Of a stretch of DNA of 64,000 nucleotides, positions 7,085 through 62,657 are shown one piece after another. This stretch comes from Bacteroidales bacterium (lineage in GTDB: Bacteria > Bacteroidota > Bacteroidia > Bacteroidales > WCHB1-69). The DNA lies in NCBI GenBank assembly GCA_017962275.1, contig JAGCVQ010000073.1:4543-68542 (forward strand), written 5' to 3'. Made by a program: the position numbers and the translations under genes. The first letter of the stretch is position 1. Each line of letters starts with the position of its first letter. The notes below the pieces were generated by a model. The model searched no databases and was not told the DNA's origin. It saw only the letters and a program-made list of their open reading frames with translations.

Positions 7085-7131
7085 GTAGATTATAATGACA
7101 GGTGAACAACTGTGAAATGAAAATAATAACG

Positions 7132-9081
7132 ATGAAAAGCAAATGCTTGATGGCGATTTTGTTGATTTTCGCACTACCGGTGTCTCTGTTTTCGCAAGAA
7201 GATAGTGTTAAGCTGGTGGAAAACGTCATTGATGACTTGGAATTCCAGATCGAGGAAATGGAGGTGCCGGAAAGTGTCTCGGAAGAGATGCTGGAGGTGA
7301 TGGAATCAGCGCGGATGAACAAGAAGCCCAATCTCAATGATTTGAGTTATGAAGTGGCGGTCAGTCAGTTGCATTTGTCTGATTACCAGTACTATCAACT
7401 GCAGCTGTACATAGAGACTTTCGGGCCTCTGTACAGCGTATATGAAATTCCCGCCATCGATGGATTTGGCGATGAGGAGATGAGGAGGCTGGCGGAGATA
7501 ACCGTCATCGCACCGCCGCCAAAACGACGGCCGACCTTCTGGGAACTGATGCGTTCCAGCAAGAGTGTGTTGTGGGTGCGCTATGGTCAGGTGGTGGAAC
7601 GACAAGCGGGTTACGACACTTCCCGGTCGAACCACTACGACGGGTCGCCTGCGCACCTGCAGTTCCGCTACGACTTCAGCATCCGGCAGCATTTCGGATT
7701 CCGCATTGCGGGGGAGAAGGATGCCGGGGAGCAGTTTTTCCGAGGCGACCAGAAACAGGGCTTCGACCATTATTCGGGTTCGGTATTCGTGAAGAATCTC
7801 AAATGGCTGAAATATGCTGTGTTGGGGGATTATCGACTCAATTTCGGGCAGGGACTGGCAATCGGGTCATCGATGATGTCGGGCAAAGGGGGCGGGGTGA
7901 CAACGATACGGCGTTTCAGTGACGGGGTTCGCGCAGTGGCCACGACGAACGAGGGAGAGCTTTTCCGCGGAGGGGCGTTCACGCTGGGCAACACGCGGTG
8001 GTCGGGGAGCGGTTTTGCCGGAGCCGTCACCGAAAGCAACCGCACCGCGTTCGGCGGGTCGCTTTCCTACCGACAGGCACAGTTCTCGGTAAGCGCACAG
8101 GCCATCTGCTACGGGGAATATGACGACAGCGCGAACGTCGGGGAGAAATGGCGGTCGTTAGGGCAACCCAAGCAGATGAACGCCGGTGTGTCGTACCATG
8201 CGTTGGTCGGAAAGGTACTGTTGTTCGGAGAGGGGGCCGTTAGCGAGAAGGGAAAACCTGCCGTGCTGCAGGCTGCGCTCATCCCCGTGGCTCCCGTATT
8301 CCAGATGGCGGCATTGATACGCTATTACGCCACCGGCTACCAATCCCCGATGGGTAGCGGCTTCCGGACTTCCTCGGGCGACTGCGGTGAGTTCGGGACG
8401 TATTTGACGGGGCATCTCGTCCTGTCAAAAAACGTGGAGGCAGACTTCTTCTGCGACTACTTTCGGTTATTGTGGTTGAGCTACCAAACCGATGCACCCG
8501 CACAGGGGATGGATGCCGGTGTGGCGTTAAGCTGCCGACTTCCGGGGAAGAATCTGCTGTATGTTCGCTATCAATGGCGGACCAAGTCGAAAAACGAGAG
8601 CGATGACACCTATTTGCATCGGCTGAGGGAGCAGAGTCGGCATCGGTTCCGGCTGCAATGGAGTTGCAATCCCCTGCCCTGGTTAGACACCAAAACCGAG
8701 ATCAGCATGGTGTTCAACAGGGGTCCCTGCATTGAAAAACGTTGGCACAAAGGAATTCTGATGTACCAAGATTTGGCGTTCAACTGGAAGAAGCCACAGC
8801 TCAGCATGCATCTGCGCATCGCCTATTTCGATACGGACCGCTACGATGAGCGGCTCTACGCTTACGAAAACGATGTCTATTACGCCTTTACGGTCGGCTC
8901 ATACTACTATCAGGGAATAAAGGCCTACTTGCTGTTACGCTACAAAATACGAAACTTCAGCATCTGGTTCCGTGTGGCCCGGACGCATTATCTGAACAGA
9001 AATGACATCGGCAGCGGCCTGACCTATATTGACAAGCCGTACAAAACAGAGGTGAAAGTGCAGGGAATGTATCGGTTCTGA
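7132..9081 (+). CDS. Large secreted or outer-membrane protein with an N-terminal ComEA-like helix-hairpin-helix module
   Basis: Signal peptide MKSKCLMAILLIFALPVSLFSQ. A ComEA/HhH-like stretch reads LSDYQYYQLQLYIETFGPLYSVYEIPAIDGFGDEEMRRLAEI. A long Gly/aromatic-rich beta-type C-terminal region ends in ...VQGMYRF. Confidence 0.6.
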   Translation: MKSKCLMAILLIFALPVSLFSQEDSVKLVENVIDDLEFQIEEMEVPESVSEEMLEVMESARMNKKPNLNDLSYEVAVSQLHLSDYQYYQLQLYIETFGPLYSVYEIPAIDGFGDEEMRRLAEITVIAPPPKRRPTFWELMRSSKSVLWVRYGQVVERQAGYDTSRSNHYDGSPAHLQFRYDFSIRQHFGFRIAGEKDAGEQFFRGDQKQGFDHYSGSVFVKNLKWLKYAVLGDYRLNFGQGLAIGSSMMSGKGGGVTTIRRFSDGVRAVATTNEGELFRGGAFTLGNTRWSGSGFAGAVTESNRTAFGGSLSYRQAQFSVSAQAICYGEYDDSANVGEKWRSLGQPKQMNAGVSYHALVGKVLLFGEGAVSEKGKPAVLQAALIPVAPVFQMAALIRYYATGYQSPMGSGFRTSSGDCGEFGTYLTGHLVLSKNVEADFFCDYFRLLWLSYQTDAPAQGMDAGVALSCRLPGKNLLYVRYQWRTKSKNESDDTYLHRLREQSRHRFRLQWSCNPLPWLDTKTEISMVFNRGPCIEKRWHKGILMYQDLAFNWKKPQLSMHLRIAYFDTDRYDERLYAYENDVYYAFTVGSYYYQGIKAYLLLRYKIRNFSIWFRVARTHYLNRNDIGSGLTYIDKPYKTEVKVQGMYRF

Positions 9082-9113
9082 AATGACGTTCTTTTCGTTC
9101 GTTCTTTTCGTCC

Positions 9114-9141
9114 GTAGAGACGCAAAATTTTGCGTCTCTAC
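9114..9141. repeat. Perfect 28-nt palindrome GTAGAGACGCAAAATTTTGCGTCTCTAC (copy 1)
   Basis: Read directly from the sequence. It lies between convergent genes and could act as a bidirectional hairpin or terminator, although no U-tract follows it. Confidence 0.9.
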
Positions 9142-9142
9142 T

Positions 9143-9170
9143 ATTGCCTGTTGCAAATTGCCTTTTGCCT
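9143..9170. repeat. Heptamer array, AGGCAAT family (reverse orientation)
   Basis: ATTGCCT GTTGCAA ATTGCCT TTTGCCT, with an exact period of 7. Confidence 0.8.
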
Positions 9171-9174
9171 CAGA

Positions 9175-9807
9175 TCAAAGAATCATCTCTTTTACGGAAT
9201 CATGGATGCCCAGTTCTTTGGCGATGCCGAGCAGTACGTTGTCGATTTTGTCCTTGACGAACTCTTCCGATTGGATGAGGTGGAGATTGGGATGCTTTGC
9301 CCACGCCTTGATGAGGTTGTCGTCCACTGCGATAGCTTCCGCCAAGGTTTCCTCCATTCTGGCGGAGTTGTTGCTCAGCGTGTAGCTGTTGGGGGCCCCT
9401 TTCGCGCTGGTGCAAAGGTGGAAAACCGCCTTGTATCGACCCATAAGTTCCTCCTCGGTGTGGCCGGTTTCGCGGAGCAGTTCTTGCCAGTCGGCGGGAT
9501 CCATGTAGGCCGAGATGTCCATCGCACCGCGGTCATTGACAATAAGCCCGGGTTTGCCGGTCGCTTCGGCAATCTCGTAGAACGACTCCTCCATCTGCAG
9601 CAGGAACCGCATCATACTCTTGTGAATCTCGAAATAAAGGTTCCGGTCCTTTGTCAGGAAGTCGGCACCCGCCTTGATGAACAGCGTGGGGGCTTCGGGC
9701 AGCGTGAAGACGGCATATCCCAACTTGGTGAAAAACTCCTCCACACGTTCATTGGTGGTGGTTTTGCCGGCGCACGGACCGCCGGTGAGCACGATCTTGG
9801 TTATCAT
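9175..9807 (-). CDS. P-loop NTPase (AAA_28-like ATPase)
   Basis: Walker A motif MITKIVLTGGPCAGKTT at the N-terminus; 210 aa. The opposite-strand ORF 9130..9825 looks like a shadow ORF. Confidence 0.75.
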   Translation of the reverse strand: MITKIVLTGGPCAGKTTTNERVEEFFTKLGYAVFTLPEAPTLFIKAGADFLTKDRNLYFEIHKSMMRFLLQMEESFYEIAEATGKPGLIVNDRGAMDISAYMDPADWQELLRETGHTEEELMGRYKAVFHLCTSAKGAPNSYTLSNNSARMEETLAEAIAVDDNLIKAWAKHPNLHLIQSEEFVKDKIDNVLLGIAKELGIHDSVKEMIL

Positions 9808-13571: not shown

Positions 13572-15441
13572 TCGTTTCATCATCACTCACCCGCATCTCA
13601 CATCGCCCGCAATCGAACACCAACCGGAAACGGTGCTTGCCGGAAATGAGATACAACGGGTCTTTCGGAGAGTTCGCCTCGGGGGGAAGTTTCTTGCACC
13701 AACCCAACTCGTAACGAAGACAATATTTGCAGGTCATCAACGACTTGCCGGCGTAATCTTCGGTTTTGTCCAAACCGTACTCGATTTCCTTGGCCCCGAA
13801 ATCCTCATACACCTTCCGATGCGCCTCGTTGGTGATGTTCCGCAGATAATCGGCACGCTGGAAGAGAGGTTCGGGATGGTATTGTAACGGCGTGTCTTTG
13901 GGGTGGAAATGCGCGAGACGGGTGGCTGTTAACTGTTCCACCAACTTGGTTTTCAGTTCGTTGATATATCCGGCACGCAAAAAAGCCGTGCATTTGGGAA
14001 TGGTGACGGTGCGTGCCTCGAACGAGGTGCCGCCTAACTTCGACAACGCCGTACGCAATGTCTCCGCCATCTTCTCGGGCTGCTGCGCGGCCGTCAACGC
14101 CACATTGTCCTCCACAATCGCGGTGCATCCGTCCTCATCGGTCATGGTAACCCGAACACGATCAGTGAGCTCTTCGAATAGAATATCCACGGCAATCTTC
14201 CGTTCAGCGGTCTTTCCACTCAAAATCTTCTCGAATTGCTTGTCAATATTTCGGTACAACGCCACTTTGGTGAATTTGGACAGCGGCTTCTGCGGAATGA
14301 TGCGATTGCCTTCCACTCCGTTGACCAAAAAGCCCTCTAATTCGCCCTGCTCGTTGATAAAACACAGACCATCGCCGTTGGATATTGGTTGTTGGCTGTT
14401 AGCTTTCGGCTTTTGGCTATTAGCTATTGGCTGTTGGCTGTTGCCTAATCCCTCAAACCAATACTTCCCGCCACGCTGCCTTAGATACCCGACAAATTGT
14501 CCCATCGCCTTCGGTGTATCGAACGAGGTCATCTTTTCGCGCTGACCTTCAATGAAGTAGGAGGTGAAGTTGCGGTTGAAGGTCTTGTGCAGGTCGGGAG
14601 TAAAGAAGAAACGGGTGGTGCCGCTGCCAACCCGTTGATAATCGGGACGTTCTTCCAATATACGGTCGATGAGCTGACGGTAGTAGGCGGTGACGTTCTT
14701 GACGTAACTCTCGTTTTTCAGCCGGCCCTCGACCTTGAAAGAGCAAATACCCGCGTTCATCATCTCTTCAATGTGATCGGCGCGGCACATATCCTTCAAC
14801 GAGAGCAGGTGCTTGTTCCGGATAAGAGTCTTACCGTCAGCATCTTGCAAGTCGAAGCGGGTTCGGCAGATCTGAGCGCAGGCCCCTCGGTTGCCACTCC
14901 GTCCTGTCATCATCCGGCTGATGTAACACTGGCCGCTGTAGCAGACGCACAATGCGCCATGCACGAACGCTTCCAATTCGATATCGGTCTGTTTATGAAT
15001 CTGTTGTGCAGTCTGTAAATCCATTTCACGGGCCAGTACCGCACGGGTGAAACCTAACTTTTCGAGAAATTGGATGCGTTCCAACGAATGGTTGTGGCAT
15101 TGCGTGCTCGCGTGCAAGGCGATGGGCGGGATATCAAGCGTCAACAGTCCCAGATCCTGAACCAACACGGCATCGACACCGATGTTATAGAGTTCCCAAA
15201 GCAGCTTCCGGGCGGACTCTAACTCGTTGTCGTACAGCAAGGTGTTGACGGTGACATGCACTTTCGAGCCGTAGAGGTGGGCATGTTTCACCAGGGCTTC
15301 GATGTCCTGCAGGGAATTGCCGACCGCCTGACGCGCCCCGAACGCAGGCGCACCCGTATAGACAGCATCCGCGCCGTGGTTGATGGCGGTGATTCCGCAG
15401 GCCAAATCCTTGGCAGGCAACAAAAGCTCGATCTTACTCAT
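13558..15441 (-). CDS. Peptidase U32 family protein (collagenase-like/RlhA-TrhP type) carrying an internal low-complexity insertion
   Basis: IELLLPAKDLACGITAINHGADAVYTGAPAFGARQ and the long conserved body are U32-like. The track start at 15447 is TTG; the first ATG is at 15441. The insert is GNSQQPIANSQKPKANSQQPISNG. Confidence 0.88.
   Translation of the reverse strand: MSKIELLLPAKDLACGITAINHGADAVYTGAPAFGARQAVGNSLQDIEALVKHAHLYGSKVHVTVNTLLYDNELESARKLLWELYNIGVDAVLVQDLGLLTLDIPPIALHASTQCHNHSLERIQFLEKLGFTRAVLAREMDLQTAQQIHKQTDIELEAFVHGALCVCYSGQCYISRMMTGRSGNRGACAQICRTRFDLQDADGKTLIRNKHLLSLKDMCRADHIEEMMNAGICSFKVEGRLKNESYVKNVTAYYRQLIDRILEERPDYQRVGSGTTRFFFTPDLHKTFNRNFTSYFIEGQREKMTSFDTPKAMGQFVGYLRQRGGKYWFEGLGNSQQPIANSQKPKANSQQPISNGDGLCFINEQGELEGFLVNGVEGNRIIPQKPLSKFTKVALYRNIDKQFEKILSGKTAERKIAVDILFEELTDRVRVTMTDEDGCTAIVEDNVALTAAQQPEKMAETLRTALSKLGGTSFEARTVTIPKCTAFLRAGYINELKTKLVEQLTATRLAHFHPKDTPLQYHPEPLFQRADYLRNITNEAHRKVYEDFGAKEIEYGLDKTEDYAGKSLMTCKYCLRYELGWCKKLPPEANSPKDPLYLISGKHRFRLVFDCGRCEMRVSDDETITIL
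14384..14446. repeat. Nine in-frame heptamers inside the U32 peptidase CDS
   Basis: ATTGGTT GTTGGCT GTTAGCT TTCGGCT TTTGGCT ATTAGCT ATTGGCT GTTGGCT GTTGCCT = 63 nt. They encode NSQQPIANSQKPKANSQQPIS on the minus strand. Confidence 0.9.
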
Positions 15442-16654
15442 CGGCAAAGCGTTTCGCCTTCAGTGGGAACTGTTCGGCCAGTTCGCCGGAGTAATAAAAG
15501 TCATTGCAAATCACCCCGAAGGTGTAAATCTCATCGTGGACGGTGATGTGCGAGCCGCCGCACTGTGGGTCGGGACCCGGTTTGGAGGCTGCGAACCCGA
15601 GGTTGAAAAGGGTGAACAGAATGTCGGGACGATTGGTGATGTCGTATCCTGAACGCTTCCATTGCAGCATGGTCTGATGCAGGATACAACCCGTGTAAAT
15701 GTATGAGTACAAATGATTTCGGTAATTCGTGAGCCGGTTGAACCGCTCAGATTGGTGGTCAGCGGTCTGGAAATCGAGGATGTGCTCGTAGGTTTTGCCC
15801 ATGTAGAAAATGGAGGCGGTGTCGGTGAGGTTGCGTTCCACCTGCATGGCCGTGAAATCCTTGATGCCGTTGACCCCGAGCGAGAACTGCGACTGCACCG
15901 AAAGTACCTTCATCGGGCCGAGGTAGCGTTTGTACATTTCGCGTTTGCTGTTGAAAAGCCGTACCTGTTCTCCTACGAGACAGCCCACGATGAGGCGGGG
16001 CTCAACCCCGGTGAGACGGGCGGCTTCATAAATCACGGCGGAATCTTTCAAGATGGCAGCCTTCAACGCCGGCCATGCCGAATCGTTCATCCACGGAACC
16101 ACATTTCCTTCAAACGGAGACATCTTATTGGTTTTCAATAGATTGTTGATATCGTCCACCATCTTCTGATAGGCCGTGGCGTGTTCATCGTCCTGCATGT
16201 ACATGTTGGCGGCATAGAGCATCTCGCTGATGGCCGTGGGACGGTCACTGTATTGCGCGGCATTGAAGATCAGGTCGGCATTCTTCGGATAGAAGTGCCG
16301 CAAAACGGACAGCGAGCGGTAATCCGTGAGAATCTGCTCTTGGCTGTCTATCGAATCCGACTGCGATGTATATTTCTGTCTTTCAGATAGGTAGCGATTG
16401 TTTTGGTCGGCGCCGCCCTTGTTGTTGGTGAAGCCGAGTTCGAAAAACGCCCATGCGCCGAGGATGCCCGCACCCACCAGCGCAAACAGATGTAACACAA
16501 TCAGATAGAATTTGCTGTGTCCCTTCAGCCGTTTCCATGATTTCCACAAACTCCGCTTCTTGCGGAGTTTTTTCGAAGTTTGTTGGGACGTATTGCCATT
16601 GGATTGTAGAGACGGTGCATGCACCGTCTCTACAGAGGAATTTGTCTCTTCCAT
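15434..16654 (-). CDS. Hypothetical membrane-anchored protein
   Basis: 406 aa. A basic stretch is followed by one TM helix (FYLIVLHLFALVGAGILGAWAFF) and a large soluble domain. An 8-nt overlap (ATGAGTAA) joins it to the U32 gene. Confidence 0.6.
   Translation of the reverse strand: MEETNSSVETVHAPSLQSNGNTSQQTSKKLRKKRSLWKSWKRLKGHSKFYLIVLHLFALVGAGILGAWAFFELGFTNNKGGADQNNRYLSERQKYTSQSDSIDSQEQILTDYRSLSVLRHFYPKNADLIFNAAQYSDRPTAISEMLYAANMYMQDDEHATAYQKMVDDINNLLKTNKMSPFEGNVVPWMNDSAWPALKAAILKDSAVIYEAARLTGVEPRLIVGCLVGEQVRLFNSKREMYKRYLGPMKVLSVQSQFSLGVNGIKDFTAMQVERNLTDTASIFYMGKTYEHILDFQTADHQSERFNRLTNYRNHLYSYIYTGCILHQTMLQWKRSGYDITNRPDILFTLFNLGFAASKPGPDPQCGGSHITVHDEIYTFGVICNDFYYSGELAEQFPLKAKRFADE
16605..16634. 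repeat. Perfect 30-nt palindrome TGTAGAGACGGTGCATGCACCGTCTCTACA (variant of the GTAGAGACG family)
   Basis: Same outer arms GTAGAGACG/CGTCTCTAC with a different core. It lies within codons 8-17 (VETVHAPSLQ) of ORF 15434..16654. Confidence 0.9.
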
Positions 16655-28881: not shown

Positions 28882-29493
28882 ATGAACGACGAAAAACACT
28901 GCCGCGTATGGATAGAGCCGATGTCGCGTGAGGAGTTCTCGGGCAAGGGGAAGCCCCTCACCATCAGCTACAGCATCTACGCCGCCCCTTTCGGGCGCGT
29001 TTTGATTGCCTCTACCGCCAAGGGCATCTGTTTCCTCATGCCCGCCGCGATGAAATGGGAGCCTGAGGCGACCCTGAGAAGGCATTTCCCCAAGGCGCGG
29101 TTCCGCTGTCGTACCGTGGCCCTGCACAAGAAGGCGCTGTTGCTGCTCCGACAACGCTATGACAAGGTGCCGAGCCTTTGTCTCCATCTGTACGGCACTC
29201 CCTTCCAAATGGAGGTGTGGCGCGATTTGTTGTCCATTCCCGTCGGTATGGTGACCACCTACCAGCACATTGCCGACCGCATAGGCCGACCCAAATCGGC
29301 ACGGCCGGTGGGACAGGCGGTGGGGGCCAACCCGGTGATGTATATCGTGCCCTGCCATCGCGTTGTCCGCACTGACGGCTCTCTCGGGGGCTTCCGTTGG
29401 GGGATCTCCCGCAAAATCAAGTTCCTGAACGAGGAGGCCAAGGCCGCCACGAAAGTCGCGGGGCTCAAGAAGTGGGAGCCGACGCTGTTCTGA
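28882..29493 (+). CDS. ogt: Methylated-DNA--protein-cysteine methyltransferase
   Basis: Active-site motif IVPCHRVV preceded by TYQHIADRIGRPKSARPVGQAVGANP. The track start at 28861 is TTG; the first ATG is at 28882. Confidence 0.85.
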   Translation: MNDEKHCRVWIEPMSREEFSGKGKPLTISYSIYAAPFGRVLIASTAKGICFLMPAAMKWEPEATLRRHFPKARFRCRTVALHKKALLLLRQRYDKVPSLCLHLYGTPFQMEVWRDLLSIPVGMVTTYQHIADRIGRPKSARPVGQAVGANPVMYIVPCHRVVRTDGSLGGFRWGISRKIKFLNEEAKAATKVAGLKKWEPTLF

Positions 29494-29512
29494 TAATGAC
29501 TATTCGCGAGGT

Positions 29513-29540
29513 GTAGGGACGTAAAATTTTGCGTCTCTAC
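29513..29540. repeat. 28-nt palindrome family, copy 2 (GTAGGGACGTAAAATTTTGCGTCTCTAC)
   Basis: It carries two transitions in the left arm relative to the perfect palindrome. Both still allow G-U pairing in a plus-strand RNA. It lies 20 nt after the ogt stop. Confidence 0.85.
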
Positions 29541-29565
29541 AAAACAGATCATATATTGTCTCTTC

Positions 29566-29620
29566 CTCCGGTCCAACTCCGGTCCAACTCCGGTGTAACT
29601 CCTGTGTAAGTCCTGTGTGG
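29566..29620. repeat. 11-nt tandem array with stepwise drift
   Basis: CTCCGGTCCAA CTCCGGTCCAA CTCCGGTGTAA CTCCTGTGTAA GTCCTGTGTGG. It abuts the hemW stop. Confidence 0.88.
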
Positions 29621-36072: not shown

Positions 36073-36132
36073 GTCCCGAAGGGACAACATCTTAATAACC
36101 CCACACAAGGCGTGAGCCGCAGTGTGGGGTTA
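36073..36132. repeat. Hairpin element: GTCCCGAAGGGAC mini-hairpin plus TAATAACCCCACAC-N15-GCAGTGTGGGGTTA (copy 1)
   Basis: The stem AACCCCACAC/GTGTGGGGTT was read directly. The same element recurs at 62474-62511 and, inverted, at 62612-62657. Confidence 0.8.
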
Positions 36133-48626: not shown

Positions 48627-49857
48627 AAATCGGTTCGTAACTGTCGAAAATCGCGTTCTCGTAGTTGTCGAACGGGGTGTGGTAAAAGGGGAAGGCGTCG
48701 CCGCTTTCGTTCTCGAAAAGGATGCTCGGCACGCCTTTCTCAGTGAACGGATAGTGGTCGCTGTTACCGGCTAACTCCCCGCGGTTCAATCCTTTAAAGT
48801 ATTTCTTTTCCGTGTTGATTTTGTCGAATGTCGTGAAGCCTCGGTCGGAGTTGGTTTCTACGTATTGCATGGGGTTGTTGTCACCGATCATGTCGATGTT
48901 GATGAGGAACTTGATTTGCTCTAACGGAACGGTCGGATGCGCCACGTACCACTCCGAGCCGCGCAAGTTGGCATCCTCACCGGAGAAGGAGATGAAGTAG
49001 ATGTCGTACTCGGGACGGTTCTGGGCGTAATAGGCCGCGAGCGTCACAATGGCGGCAGTGCCGGAAGCGTTGTCGTTGGCTCCGGCGTAGAACACCTTCT
49101 TGCCGAGGTTGCCGAGGTGGTCGTAGTGCGCCGTGAAGACGAAGCAGCTGTCGTGCCGCTTGCCCTCCACCTTGGCGATGACGTTGAAGAGTTCGTAGTT
49201 CTCCAGGAACTTGTTCTCAATGTTGACGGTGATGCTCTGCGCGTCCTTCGGGAAGTCGGTGGTGCACCAGATAACGGGCTTGCCCATGATCTTCTCTCCG
49301 TAAGCCTTATAGAATTTGAGATGCGGCTCCCAAGTCTGGATCATGCCGGCGTTGGTGCAGCCTTCCTTACCCCAAATCTTCTTGAAGTCTTGGTAATGGC
49401 GGTAAGAGAAAAAGAAGTCACACACCACGAAGCAGTCCTTGTACTCGGGTTTTGCGAGGTCGGCGAACATCTTCTCGGCATCGTAATTGTTCGTATCGAC
49501 GTAGTAGAGTTTGTAAGTGCCGCGCACGCCCGGCGAGTACTCGCGCATCGAGAATTCCACGCCCGGGGTCAGCTTGCGGCCATCGACGGACATCTCCATC
49601 TTGCCGGGAAAGGTGTTGATGTTGATGGTGAACGGCTGGCAGATAACCTCATCGACGCCCGCCTTCTTGTATTCCTTTGCCAAATACTTCCCCGCTTTGT
49701 TGGCACCGCCGTAGGCATAGCCGCGCCCTTGGTATTTCGCGGAAGTCAGCTCTTTGAGCACCTGTTTGTAATGCTCTAAATTCTGAGCCTGTAGGGACGA
49801 GGTGCACATCGTCTCTACCAACAAAAATGCCAATGCTATGATAGTCAGTTTTTTCAT
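48592..49857 (-). CDS. M28-family aminopeptidase (secreted)
   Basis: Signal peptide MKKLTIIALAFLLVETMCTSSLQAQ. FTAHYDHLG...GANDNASGTAAIVTLA...FISFSGEDANLRGS are the M28 metal-ligand motifs. The start is set 25 nt after a -7 box; the 655-aa track ORF is an upstream extension. Confidence 0.85.
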   Translation of the reverse strand: MKKLTIIALAFLLVETMCTSSLQAQNLEHYKQVLKELTSAKYQGRGYAYGGANKAGKYLAKEYKKAGVDEVICQPFTININTFPGKMEMSVDGRKLTPGVEFSMREYSPGVRGTYKLYYVDTNNYDAEKMFADLAKPEYKDCFVVCDFFFSYRHYQDFKKIWGKEGCTNAGMIQTWEPHLKFYKAYGEKIMGKPVIWCTTDFPKDAQSITVNIENKFLENYELFNVIAKVEGKRHDSCFVFTAHYDHLGNLGKKVFYAGANDNASGTAAIVTLAAYYAQNRPEYDIYFISFSGEDANLRGSEWYVAHPTVPLEQIKFLINIDMIGDNNPMQYVETNSDRGFTTFDKINTEKKYFKGLNRGELAGNSDHYPFTEKGVPSILFENESGDAFPFYHTPFDNYENAIFDSYEPIFRLVKDFVERY

Positions 49858-53639: not shown

Positions 53640-54692
53640 ATGAATCCCGTAACATCCCGACTTCTCAACCAGCAGCTTGTGGCGCCGCAGTTCAGTGATC
53701 CGGCGGAGGTAGTGAGCCATTTGGGCGCGATGCAGGCGCAGGAATACCGACTGATGCGGTGGGCGGTGGCGATGCGTACCCGCAAACCGTCGTTGTCGGC
53801 GTTCACGAAGGCATTCGACGACGGCCGTATCATTCGTATGCACCTCATGCGCGGCACATGGCAGTTGGTGGCCGCCGAGGACTACTGGTGGATGCTCGAA
53901 CTCTGTGCCCCCAAGGCCATCTCAGTCACCAAGGGGTGGATGCACAGCAACAAAATCGACATTCCCGAAAAGGAATACCTGAAAATCAGGGAGATACTGG
54001 CGCAAACCGCCGCCGACAAAGGGAGCGTGACGAAGGAGGATTTCGTGAACGCGCTGTCGGAAAAGGACATCACGATGGATGACCATCGGCTGTCGTATCA
54101 TATCCGCATGTGCGAGATGACGGGAACGCTTTGCAGCGGCAATCTGCAGCCGATGAAAGCGACCTACGCCCTCGCTTCCGAAAAGGTGAAACGGACGGAA
54201 CCCCTCGACCGCGACGAAGCTCTGATGCGCTTCACCCGAAAGTATTTTCAAAGCCGGCAGCCCGCCACATTGGAGGATTTCGTGTGGTGGTCGGGGCTGA
54301 ACATCAGCGACTGCCGAAGGGGAATTGAATTGTTGGGCGATTATCTACATGTAGAGACGCAAAATTTTGCGTCTCTACCACGCAGGGAATTCTATTTGAC
54401 CGACGACTGTCGCACGCGGGGCTTCCGCAAAGGACAATACCTGCTGATTCCGCCCTACGACGAGTACCTGATCGGTTACAAGAGTCGCGACATCGTGCTG
54501 CAGCCGGAGCATCAGCACCGCGCACACAACAACCGGGGCATCTTCCAGCCCATCATCGCCCACGACGGTCTCATCTGCGGCAACTGGGCACCTTTCAAGA
54601 AGGAATTCCAGGTGGAGTTTTTCCGCGAAGGACACAATGCGGAGGATGTGTTAGGTGCGTGGGAGGGGTATGCGCGGTTTCGAGACATGTAA
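53640..54692 (+). CDS. YcaQ/AlkZ-like winged-helix DNA glycosylase family protein (DUF1006), carrying an in-frame palindromic-element insertion
   Basis: LLNQQLVAPQFSDPAEVVSHLGAMQAQEY...RMHLMRGTWQLV is the YcaQ-family N-terminal pattern. Codons ...HVETQNFASLP... are encoded by the 28-nt palindrome at 54351-54378. Confidence 0.8.
   Translation: MNPVTSRLLNQQLVAPQFSDPAEVVSHLGAMQAQEYRLMRWAVAMRTRKPSLSAFTKAFDDGRIIRMHLMRGTWQLVAAEDYWWMLELCAPKAISVTKGWMHSNKIDIPEKEYLKIREILAQTAADKGSVTKEDFVNALSEKDITMDDHRLSYHIRMCEMTGTLCSGNLQPMKATYALASEKVKRTEPLDRDEALMRFTRKYFQSRQPATLEDFVWWSGLNISDCRRGIELLGDYLHVETQNFASLPRREFYLTDDCRTRGFRKGQYLLIPPYDEYLIGYKSRDIVLQPEHQHRAHNNRGIFQPIIAHDGLICGNWAPFKKEFQVEFFREGHNAEDVLGAWEGYARFRDM
54351..54378. 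repeat. Perfect 28-nt palindrome GTAGAGACGCAAAATTTTGCGTCTCTAC (copy 3), inside a CDS
   Basis: Identical to the copy at 9114-9141. It lies within the open reading frame of the YcaQ-like gene. Confidence 0.9.
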
Positions 54693-54728: not shown

Positions 54729-55136
54729 CTACACCAGAACGGCATTCCGCATAGTTTCGGCAAATTTGGTCACGCCCGCTTGAATGCGTTTCACGGTCTT
54801 CGGGGAGGGTTTTCTGTATCCAGTGACGTAATGGCTCAGTTGCTTACAGTTGATGCCGGTTGCTTTTGACAATCCGATAAGGGAGAATGGCGAGTATTTG
54901 AGAAACGAGATGGTGTCAAAAACATACTCGAAGTCAAGATGATCGAAATCGAAACTTTCGCCAGCCTCTTCATATACCGCCTTCATTTCTTCTTTGCTGT
55001 TCAGGAGATCGGCCTTTGCCTCCTCAATGGTATCGCCTTGTCCGAGCAGCATAAAACCCAAAGATTCGTCATCAGTATGGATGTCGTAATCCAAATTCTT
55101 TCCAGTTTCTATAATGGCTCTTACTCTCATATTCAT
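54729..55136 (-). CDS. hicB: HicB-family antitoxin with a C-terminal HTH
   Basis: N-terminal HicB-like fold pattern (AIIETGKNLDYDIHTDD...GQGDTIEEAKADL) and C-terminal HTH (LSKATGINCKQLSHYVTGYRKPS). It lies directly downstream of hicA. Confidence 0.75.
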   Translation of the reverse strand: MNMRVRAIIETGKNLDYDIHTDDESLGFMLLGQGDTIEEAKADLLNSKEEMKAVYEEAGESFDFDHLDFEYVFDTISFLKYSPFSLIGLSKATGINCKQLSHYVTGYRKPSPKTVKRIQAGVTKFAETMRNAVLV

Positions 55137-55174
55137 CAGCTTTTTTTATTTCTAACAACTAATTTACGGTACCG

Positions 55175-55357
55175 TTATTTGATACCCGCTATTTTTAATA
55201 TTTTCTCCAAAGTTCCTTTTTTCACTTCCTCTGACTTATGATGACCAGTTTGGAAACGTTTCCCTGTTTTCGGACTGTACCATACTGGGTGTGCATTGTT
55301 GCCTACAAGATAGCAACCTGCTTTTCTTAATATCTTTTCTAATTCCGAGTACTTCAT
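55175..55357 (-). CDS. hicA: HicA-family mRNA interferase toxin
   Basis: 60 aa. MKYSELEKILRKAGCYLVGNNAHPVWYSPKTGKRFQTGHHKSEEVKKGTLEKILKIAGI matches the HicA/YcfA pattern. A -7 box lies 23 nt upstream. Confidence 0.8.
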   Translation of the reverse strand: MKYSELEKILRKAGCYLVGNNAHPVWYSPKTGKRFQTGHHKSEEVKKGTLEKILKIAGIK

Positions 55358-62473: not shown

Positions 62474-62511
62474 TAATAACCCCACACTAAACAAAGTGCA
62501 GTGTGGGGTTA
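62474..62511 (+). repeat. TAATAACCCCACAC-N13-GCAGTGTGGGGTTA hairpin element (copy 2)
   Basis: Read directly from the sequence. Confidence 0.8.
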
Positions 62512-62611
62512 CGATGCGCGTGCGAGAAACTGCGTGCCAGAGGCACGCTACCTCCAGATTCGCAAATAGTAGCGTGTCTTCGACACGCCATCTACACTCC
62601 GCTGCCGCCAC

Positions 62612-62657
62612 TACCCCACACTGCGCTCCACTTCGTTACGCTGATGTGGGGTTATTA
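62612..62657 (-). repeat. TAATAACCCCACA-N20-GCAGTGTGGGGTA hairpin element (copy 3, inverted)
   Basis: The reverse complement of TACCCCACACTGC...TGTGGGGTTATTA matches the family consensus. Confidence 0.75.

Follow-up and report, generated by a model that had tools for sequence, protein, structure and literature searches.

We analysed a stretch of 64,000 nt (64 kb; hereafter the window) of contig JAGCVQ010000073.1 from a Bacteroidales bacterium. At 54351..54378 of the window lies a perfect and hence unstranded 28-nt palindrome, GTAGAGACGCAAAATTTTGCGTCTCTAC, which consists of a GTAG foot, a stem AGACG, a 10-nt palindromic core CAAAATTTTG, a stem CGTCT and a CTAC foot. It is located inside the open reading frame (ORF) 53640..54692 (+) and is translated there as VETQNFASL. 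An earlier reading of the letters alone (the original prediction) had described the palindrome, its identity with a copy at 9114-9141, its translation and the reading frame that stays open for the full 350 aa, and all of these were found as claimed. VETQNFASL or VETQNFTSL is indeed present in the shadow ORFs 8935..9156 (-), 29259..29576 (-) and 54304..54525 (-), because the element equals its reverse complement and both strands thus encode the same peptide. We consider it very likely that the palindrome is a double-foot repetitive extragenic palindrome (REP) of subclass 2.4 of the tyrosine transposases associated with REPs (RAYTs, or TnpAREP), acquired within a gene for an AlkZ-like DNA glycosylase, and that its core has since been replaced ectopically.

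The host gene at 53640..54692 (+) encodes a 350-aa protein of the HTH_42 family (Pfam PF06224, E=2.9e-46, 159 bits, cut-off 25.9) that also matched AlkZ (PDB 5UUJ, E=4.7e-17). Its motif Q32-A-Q34 was invariant in 22 orthologs. The AlkZ-like proteins are defined by a QxQ motif and the YcaQ-like proteins by QxD (PMC13303869), which places the host in the AlkZ-like subgroup and not in the YcaQ-like subgroup originally proposed. One relative from the protein clusters described below is named "AlkZ family DNA glycosylase" at NCBI. The ratio of nonsynonymous to synonymous substitution rates (dN/dS) of REP-bearing orthologs, measured outside the REP site, was 0.06-0.10, so the gene is not a pseudogene, a possibility that had been raised against the insertion. 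These sequences indicate that the REP-bearing glycosylase gene is intact, is under purifying selection and has stayed functional, as expected if the element landed in the coding sequence without destroying the gene.

The site was compared codon by codon in 80 orthologous loci from species-representative genomes, all of them metagenome-assembled genomes (MAGs) of uncultured gut or rumen Bacteroidales. The 50 REP-free orthologs read CAT GTA GAG AAA TGG AAA GGC AGG GAA TTC (H-V-E-K-W-K-G/R-R-E-F), and the 30 REP-bearing orthologs and the window read CAT GTA GAG ACG (10 nt) CG TCT CTA CCA CGC AGG GAA TTC (H-V-E-T-xxxx-S-L-P-R-R-E-F, 31 of 81 sequences). The replaced segment in the window, T-Q-N-F-A-S-L-P-R at 54357..54383 (+), has 27 nt in place of 12 nt (K-W-K-G/R). 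The net gain is therefore 15 nt or five codons, and not the approximately 10 residues originally expected, while a few alleles gained 18 to 24 nt by way of CAA repeats. The 28 nt are not a multiple of three, and no clean 28-nt insert was seen at the AlkZ-like site; the GTAGAG (Val-Glu) of the left arm already exists in many REP-free orthologs. Frames 1 and 3 of the element are free of stops on either strand and a TAG occurs in frame 2 only, so that two of three phases would be tolerated in either orientation. The same peptide in homologues without the palindrome would have spoken against an insertion; however, the peptide is missing wherever the palindrome is missing. REP-free counterparts of the intergenic copies were sought among the collected loci to set the insertion boundaries and to decide whether the mobile unit has 24, 28 or 30 nt, and gave no informative pairs. 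A triplet pair "AAA TGC" in L053, once taken as a remnant of the K-W codons, was withdrawn because it is one substitution away from AAA CGC.

All REP-bearing orthologs kept the stems, and it was the 10-nt centre that differed, nearly always as a palindrome. The cores at this one orthologous site were CAAAATTTTG, GTGTGCACAC, TGGCATGCCG, TGGCGCGCCG, CACGGCCGTG, TTTCATGAAA, TTGCGCGCAA and TGCCATGGCG, and core type does not track relatedness. L019 and L052 were 94.1% identical over the gene and 96.7% identical in the ±60-nt flanks, with a synonymous divergence (dS) of 0.23, and differed at 10 of 10 core bases; the cores of the window and L001, whose genes were 91.3% identical, contrasted in the same way. 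At the other extreme, the window was 69% identical to L019, L021, L022 and L041 (dS 2.3, saturated), yet all 28 of 28 bases of the element matched. Within the 90%-identity protein clusters of the window protein, the site read QNFA, LRAT, VCTP, LHAK, GRAP or WHAA, and the DNA of seven cluster contigs (87-92% nucleotide identity) confirmed the cores GGGCGCGCCC, TTGCGCGCAA, GTGTGCACAC, CAAAATTTTG and TGGCATGCCG. No REP-free allele was found among 29 clustered relatives that were 90.3-95.4% identical to the window protein, a range that leaves aside one truncated exact copy of that protein (P0248). Of the presence/absence polymorphism that had been suggested for related strains, REP-free orthologs do exist, but close relatives vary in the 10-nt core and not in the presence of the element. 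The insertion is old and common to a whole clade, and not private to this strain.

The same cores were found elsewhere. A scan of metagenome contigs (29-66% G+C) for GTAGAGACG-N10-CGTCTCTAC gave at least 120 loci with 132 copies, and all eight intact cores recurred at unrelated loci among the 132 copies listed, including the imperfect cores with a T/G end pair. Pairs of orthologs with the same core showed no excess flank identity (residual +0.008 vs -0.001). Third-position identity was 0.87 in the stem codons vs 0.64 gene-wide, with ACG in 27 of 27 and TCT in 29 of 29 cases. Gradual compensatory evolution of the core was ruled out, since all five base pairs differ between genes that are 91-94% identical, and it is also contradicted by the recurrence of the cores at unrelated loci. 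These comparisons show that the core has been swapped as a unit many times between stems that were invariant even at synonymous positions. The simplest reading is that the resident REP has repeatedly been overwritten by other members of the genome's REP pool. Such in-place turnover of a core at a fixed intragenic site appears to be new.

The REP segment probably lies where a beta-hairpin turns, at the tip of what would be the wing in the third winged-helix motif. HMMER aligned it without a gap to Streptomyces AlkZ, whose segment at this place would be equally long, which suggests that the longer loop falls in the natural range of the family. An AlphaFold2 model from a 22-sequence alignment placed helices at 211-218 and 222-232, just ahead of the REP segment. 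It should be noted that the quality of the model did not suffice for locating the loop or for a fold search, and the placement therefore relies on the topology of winged helices and on how HMMER aligned the protein to 5UUJ.

In a bootstrapped neighbour-joining (NJ) tree with the site masked, the window clade joined REP-free genes with a KWKRREF-type site (92%), and a large REP-bearing clade joined the REP-free gene of L070 (99%). The genes of L005 and L009 looked mosaic: approximately 180 nt around the REP were nearest to the window clade (0.82-0.86), and the parts outside the REP region were nearest to REP-free TIH-type genes. The local residues YLH and RREF were common to all REP-bearing and KWKRREF-type genes. 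From these patterns we take the REP to have been acquired once, long ago, in the YLH lineage, with some later lateral spread of the segment through homologous recombination; repeated gain is a conceivable alternative to this single acquisition. As a separate observation, the KWKRREF-type site (L004, L006, L007, L008 and L016), which reads A TGG AAA CGT CGC GAA TTC TAT CT, is loosely similar to the left arm of the REP (TGGAAACG vs TAGAGACG), possibly by chance.

The window contains four other copies of the GTAGAGACGCAAAATTTTGCGTCTCTAC family, likewise unstranded, which are located shortly past the ends of genes or between convergent genes, the usual position of REPs. The identical copy at 9114..9141 is intergenic with convergent ORFs on both sides: 7102..9081 (+), whose stop precedes it by 33 nt, and 9175..9807 (-), whose 3' end is 34 nt away. 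A slightly decayed copy with two mismatches (GTAGGGACG TAAAATTTTG CGTCTCTAC) lies between convergent ORFs at 29513..29540. Two further copies, found through an inverted-repeat scan and fuzzy searches, share the outer stem GTAGAGACG / CGTCTCTAC with the 54351 copy and differ in their centres. The copy at 49791..49818 (GTAGGGACG AGGTGCACAT CGTCTCTAC, core AGGTGCACAT) is located 12 nt past ORF 48937..49779 (+), and L003 holds a decayed ortholog of it. The copy at 16605..16634 (core GTGCATGCAC) is perfectly palindromic over 30 nt (TGTAG...CTACA). ORF 15434..16654 (-) has it in frame 1 close to its N-terminus, which reads MEETNSSVETVHAPSLQ...; either this is a second intragenic copy or the start codon of that ORF has been called too far upstream. 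All five copies have the GTAG start and the CTAC end, and they have no common sequence beyond the 28-30 nt. Under the same loose criterion, mononucleotide shuffles gave 0-1 copies vs five in the 64 kb, and 100 dinucleotide-preserving shuffles of the window gave no match to GTAGAGACGCAAAATTTTGCGTCTCTAC. A scan of the window with Rfam gathering cut-offs matched no family, and a tRNA scan found none. Each element of the family also holds two inverted CGTCTC motifs (54354-54375 in the glycosylase gene), the type IIS recognition site of BsmBI/Esp3I; this is probably coincidental.

The assignment to subclass 2.4 is based on element anatomy and on RAYT genes at related loci. This subclass occurs in Bacteroidetes and Cyanobacteria, corresponds to RAYT group 4 of Bertels et al. 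2017, and is characterised by the motifs NH[IFV]H, WQ and YIxNNP, by "double foot" REPs with 5' GT[AG]G and 3' C[TC]AC, and by in-frame REPs that the tnpAREP gene carries between its HuH and Y motifs (Quentin et al. 2018, BMC Genomics 19:475, PMC6006769). In our family, GT[AG]G was found at the 5' foot and C[TC]AC at the 3' end of a repeated palindromic stem-loop within the 20-40 nt range (28 nt, five copies in 64 kb), and the repeats flank a RAYT gene, forming a REPtron, in the related loci L070 and L201-L204. Being inside a coding sequence, the 54351-54378 copy is not an extragenic REP in the strict sense; intragenic exceptions are documented in two REP surveys (PMC3733652, PMC6006769).

The 219-aa ORF of L070 was identified as a RAYT by NCBIfam NF047646 (REP_Tyr_transpos, E=1.8e-16) and Pfam Y1_Tnp (22 bits), with PNHLH as its HUH motif. 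Arrays of GAGACG-N10-CGTCTC hairpins with a GTAG start and a CTAC end stand on both sides of this gene, which itself contains one such array in frame. In L201-L204, from a ruminant Bacteroidales MAG, a RAYT gene has three hairpins with the CAAAATTTTG core upstream and two inside, the core being identical to that of the window. Among the matches listed, which were selected by DNA pattern only, 8 of the 120 loci encoded a RAYT homolog, and in seven of these eight the RAYT gene itself contained the 28-mer, at a single conserved position immediately past the HUH strand, where it reads VETxxxxSL, or RDxxxxVST in frame 3. A protein search with the RAYT of L120 gave 4746 relatives, with the JGI name "REP element-mobilizing transposase RayT". 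In the best 120 of these 4746, NH[IV]H was present in 110, WQ in 117 and YIxNN[VPI] in the majority, with V commoner than P at the last position. Eighty of the same 120 carried one to five VETQNFAS-type peptides in the post-HUH linker, a fraction that is biased upward because the word-seeded search favours this peptide. Expanded forms, GTAG-(hairpin + ~24-nt spacer)n-hairpin-CTAC, were also seen upstream of and inside RAYT genes (L070:2005-3018, L201:2867-3352 and L058:3966-4048); inside the genes they give tandem peptide repeats of 14-16 aa, and the 28-mer corresponds to their n=0 form.

Intragenic positions were frequent. Among the matches listed, 38 of 132 copies (29%) were inside long ORFs in frame 1 or 3, of which a few may be spurious ORFs on high-GC contigs. 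According to Pfam, a copy at L199:2583-2610 (VETLNFASL) lies in the linker between the UvrD_C and PD-(D/E)XK nuclease domains of a UvrD-type helicase, and another lies between the two domains of a succinate dehydrogenase/fumarate reductase flavoprotein. An MmeI-like restriction-modification ORF (L101:171-1520; DUF7149, DUF7814 and MmeI_Mtase) contains four in-frame REPs, all with the core CGATTAATCG, of which two are read in frame 1 and the other two in frame 3. By eye, we also noted a GH2-type glycosidase-like host with two copies, and secreted-protein hosts in which the REP stands just ahead of a YPNP motif resembling the start of a type IX secretion system (T9SS) tail.

The symmetry of the element extends to its very centre. 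The central dinucleotide was self-complementary in 111 of the 132 copies listed (84%) vs 25% by chance (AT 66, GC 31, TA 14, CG 0), 85 of the 132 had perfect palindromic cores vs 1/1024 by chance, and CATG was the most frequent tetramer at the centre (40 of 132). The palindrome therefore runs through what would be the hairpin loop, where pairing is impossible, and selection for a hairpin alone is insufficient as an explanation; repeated exchange between the arms, with repair ending symmetric, is a possible cause. Among the matches listed, T is preferred immediately to the left of the element and A immediately to its right, and in 18 of 135 copies listed vs approximately 2 expected the palindrome continued into the flanks for 3 nt or more. 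At the RNA level, folding predicts for the element in the glycosylase mRNA a stem of 12 bp closed by a 4-nt loop, in line with the stem of about 12 bp originally proposed, and its 88-nt context has a minimum free energy of -27.3 kcal/mol (z = -3.5). A terminator and promoter scan around the gene found no U-tract after the hairpin, which is thus not a classical intrinsic terminator. Most likely, the mRNA hairpin is tolerated rather than functional.

Intragenic REPs, often in repair genes and in the RAYT gene itself, have already been described. Our elements resemble those of subclass 2.4 in having both feet on a long hairpin, in their Bacteroidetes hosts and in RAYT motifs of the NH[IFV]H, WQ and YIxNNP-like kind. 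The accessible part of that study reports the class but not the GTAGAGACG-N10-CGTCTCTAC sequence family, and it makes no mention of a variable 10-nt palindromic core, an intragenic share of ~29% or in-place core replacement (PMC6006769). With the GTAG-tagged REP superfamily of Di Nocera, De Gregorio and Rocco (2013, BMC Genomics 14:522, PMC3733652), our family shares the GTAG tag, short loops, sub-families with complementary stem changes and a preference for positions past gene 3' ends. Its intragenic repair hosts, the AlkZ-like glycosylase and the UvrD-type helicase-nuclease of L199, can be compared with those of that survey. However, GTAG is described there as unpaired and at one end only, whereas in the GTAGAGACGCAAAATTTTGCGTCTCTAC family it is paired and at both ends. 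No Bacteroidales family with the consensus of the GTAGAGACGCAAAATTTTGCGTCTCTAC family is given in the available text, and the main text, figures aside, does not contain the string GTAGAGAC. A literature search for the literal string GTAGAGACG gave primer matches only.

The REPs of Escherichia coli and Pseudomonas are GTAG-foot hairpins recognised by an HUH-Y1 enzyme that acts on single-stranded DNA; not being autonomous, they depend on a single-copy RAYT that mobilises them in trans. They are imperfect palindromes with real loops and a single foot, and are essentially extragenic. The E. coli REPs and bacterial interspersed mosaic elements (BIMEs) with their RAYT are reportedly treated in work by Ton-Hoang and by Messing in 2012, and the Pseudomonas REP doublets forming hairpins (REPINs) in work by Bertels and Rainey in 2011. 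Unlike these elements, the palindromes of the GTAGAGACGCAAAATTTTGCGTCTCTAC family run through the centre, as the 84% of self-complementary central dinucleotides indicates.

The Rickettsia palindromic elements (RPEs) have a consensus of the order of 100-150 bp, as in RPE-1. Our element is inserted in frame in a functional gene as RPEs are, but it is 28 nt long, is unrelated in sequence and has no Rfam match. In the survey of Di Nocera et al., RPEs are in-frame palindromic repeats in surface loops of functional genes, RPE-1 is a longer palindromic insert than the 28-mer, and RPE-4 and RPE-6 are equated with short CGTC REPs; RPEs belong to Alphaproteobacteria, and no dedicated transposase for the CGTC repeats is reported there (PMC3733652).

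The comparisons indicate that an ancestor of one rumen Bacteroidales clade acquired a REP in its AlkZ-like gene, with a net change of five codons that the reading frame and the gene function survived. We propose that the core has since been overwritten ectopically from REPs at other loci. One possible route is excision catalysed by a RAYT, followed by reinsertion at the GTAG foot that was retained; the other is template switching or short-tract conversion between REP hairpins with the 9-nt stems as homology. Homologous recombination would additionally move the REP-bearing segment between gene lineages. We suggest more tentatively, as an idea that may well prove wrong, that the intragenic REP acts as an exchangeable cassette, in which the 10-nt core, and with it the four residues of the wing tip, has been overwritten again and again from the genome's REP pool, faster than the synonymous divergence of the gene, by RAYT or hairpin-guided template switching.

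Several observations weigh against the REP assignment and its proposed history. The exchange of 27 nt for 12 nt needs at least one extra step of deletion or substitution, and the original insertion is not cleanly reconstructed. The structure model was weak around the REP site (mean pLDDT, the predicted local distance difference test score, 53; below 50 at residues 234-342). REP-bearing genes were monophyletic in 0 of 200 NJ bootstrap replicates, so repeated gain or recombination must be invoked. Against NCBIfam the RAYTs score 46-60 bits where the curated cut-off is 80, with Pfam one of them reaches 22 bits and so narrowly misses the cut-off of 23, and tblastn found no RAYT gene within the 64-kb window. 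Furthermore, the mechanism of core replacement is read from sequence patterns only.

The different cores could instead be independent insertions of REP variants at one hot-spot, the GTAG in CAT GTA GAR, with no overwriting. The pre-existing GTAGAG of many REP-free orthologs and the lack of monophyly of REP-bearing alleles fit this idea, and a 24-nt unit inserted 3' of GTAG would stay in frame. However, alleles with different cores share a derived right flank (K-W-K codons lost, CTA CCA CGC AGG), which makes independent insertion into empty sites unlikely; in addition, 94%-identical pairs differ in core and no REP-free intermediate occurs among the 29 clustered relatives. We therefore regard the hot-spot explanation as quite improbable. 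Core diversity might also be an old polymorphism of the glycosylase gene, shuffled by ordinary homologous recombination without input from other REPs or RAYT. The mosaic look of L005 and L009 and the highly variable gene neighbourhood speak for such shuffling, but identical 28-mers occur at dS 2.3, a divergence at which recombination is expected to be ineffective and 28 bases would not be expected to stay unchanged. The eight cores at unrelated loci and the absence of excess flank identity between same-core pairs likewise argue against it, and we consider it unlikely.

A different view is that the hairpin is itself a selected functional part, namely an RNA structure for translation or stability, a protein-binding DNA site or a variable four-residue wing tip. 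Conservation of the stems at synonymous sites and retention of the element across deep divergence would agree with this, as would the over-representation of intragenic REPs in replication and repair genes that Di Nocera et al. 2013 note (PMC3733652). Against it, many unrelated genes carry the same element in frame, intergenic DNA has it too, most orthologs lack it, and no U-tract or other terminator sign accompanies it, while repeated overwriting explains the stem conservation equally well; function of the hairpin is therefore highly improbable as the explanation. Finally, the element is short, repeated and palindromic, as a miniature inverted-repeat transposable element (MITE) from a DDE-type insertion sequence or a chance palindrome might be. 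The absence of matches in shuffled sequence disfavours chance. A MITE is disfavoured by the length of 28 nt, far under the 70-300 bp of MITEs, by the lack of a target-site duplication, with flanks that differ at every copy, and by the specific association with RAYT genes. The probability of this last explanation is negligible, and of the "REP/MITE-like" label originally given, the REP part stands on the GTAG-foot anatomy and the RAYT association and the MITE part falls.

Outside the REP family, a putative HicB/HicA pair, recognised by eye, lies directly downstream of the glycosylase gene at 54729-55357 (-). Close relatives have HicA or HipA modules at this position (precomputed Pfam, L216 and L212) and otherwise unrelated neighbours, so the glycosylase neighbourhood is highly variable even among orthologs more than 90% identical. 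A second, unrelated intergenic hairpin repeat, TAACCCCACAC - variable loop - GTGTGGGGTTA, was found at 36094-36132 and 62475-62511 and in part at 62612-62655. At 62532-62588, two adjacent small hairpins, GCGTGCC-AGA-GGCACGC-TAC and GTAG-CGTGTC-TTCG-ACACGC, resemble single-foot GTAG REPs of another family placed tail to tail.

To our knowledge, RAYT-driven transposition has not been observed in vivo, and the movement and turnover of REPs have so far been argued mostly from population statistics. A REP in a conserved reading frame provides an exact orthologous anchor across dozens of genomes, at which the core changes as a unit and the flanks barely change; with such an anchor, it can be tested directly how fast, from which donors and by which mechanism REPs are replaced. 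For annotation, the peptides VETxxxxSL and RDxxxxVST seed spurious ORFs and protein similarities in Bacteroidota. The Bacteroidales crosslink glycosylase and the UvrD-type helicase join the still unexplained list of repair genes with in-frame REPs. If the tentative idea of continual overwriting of the wing tip is true, the site would be a natural recorder of REP/RAYT activity, and REPs would be a source of localised peptide hypervariability in repair enzymes.

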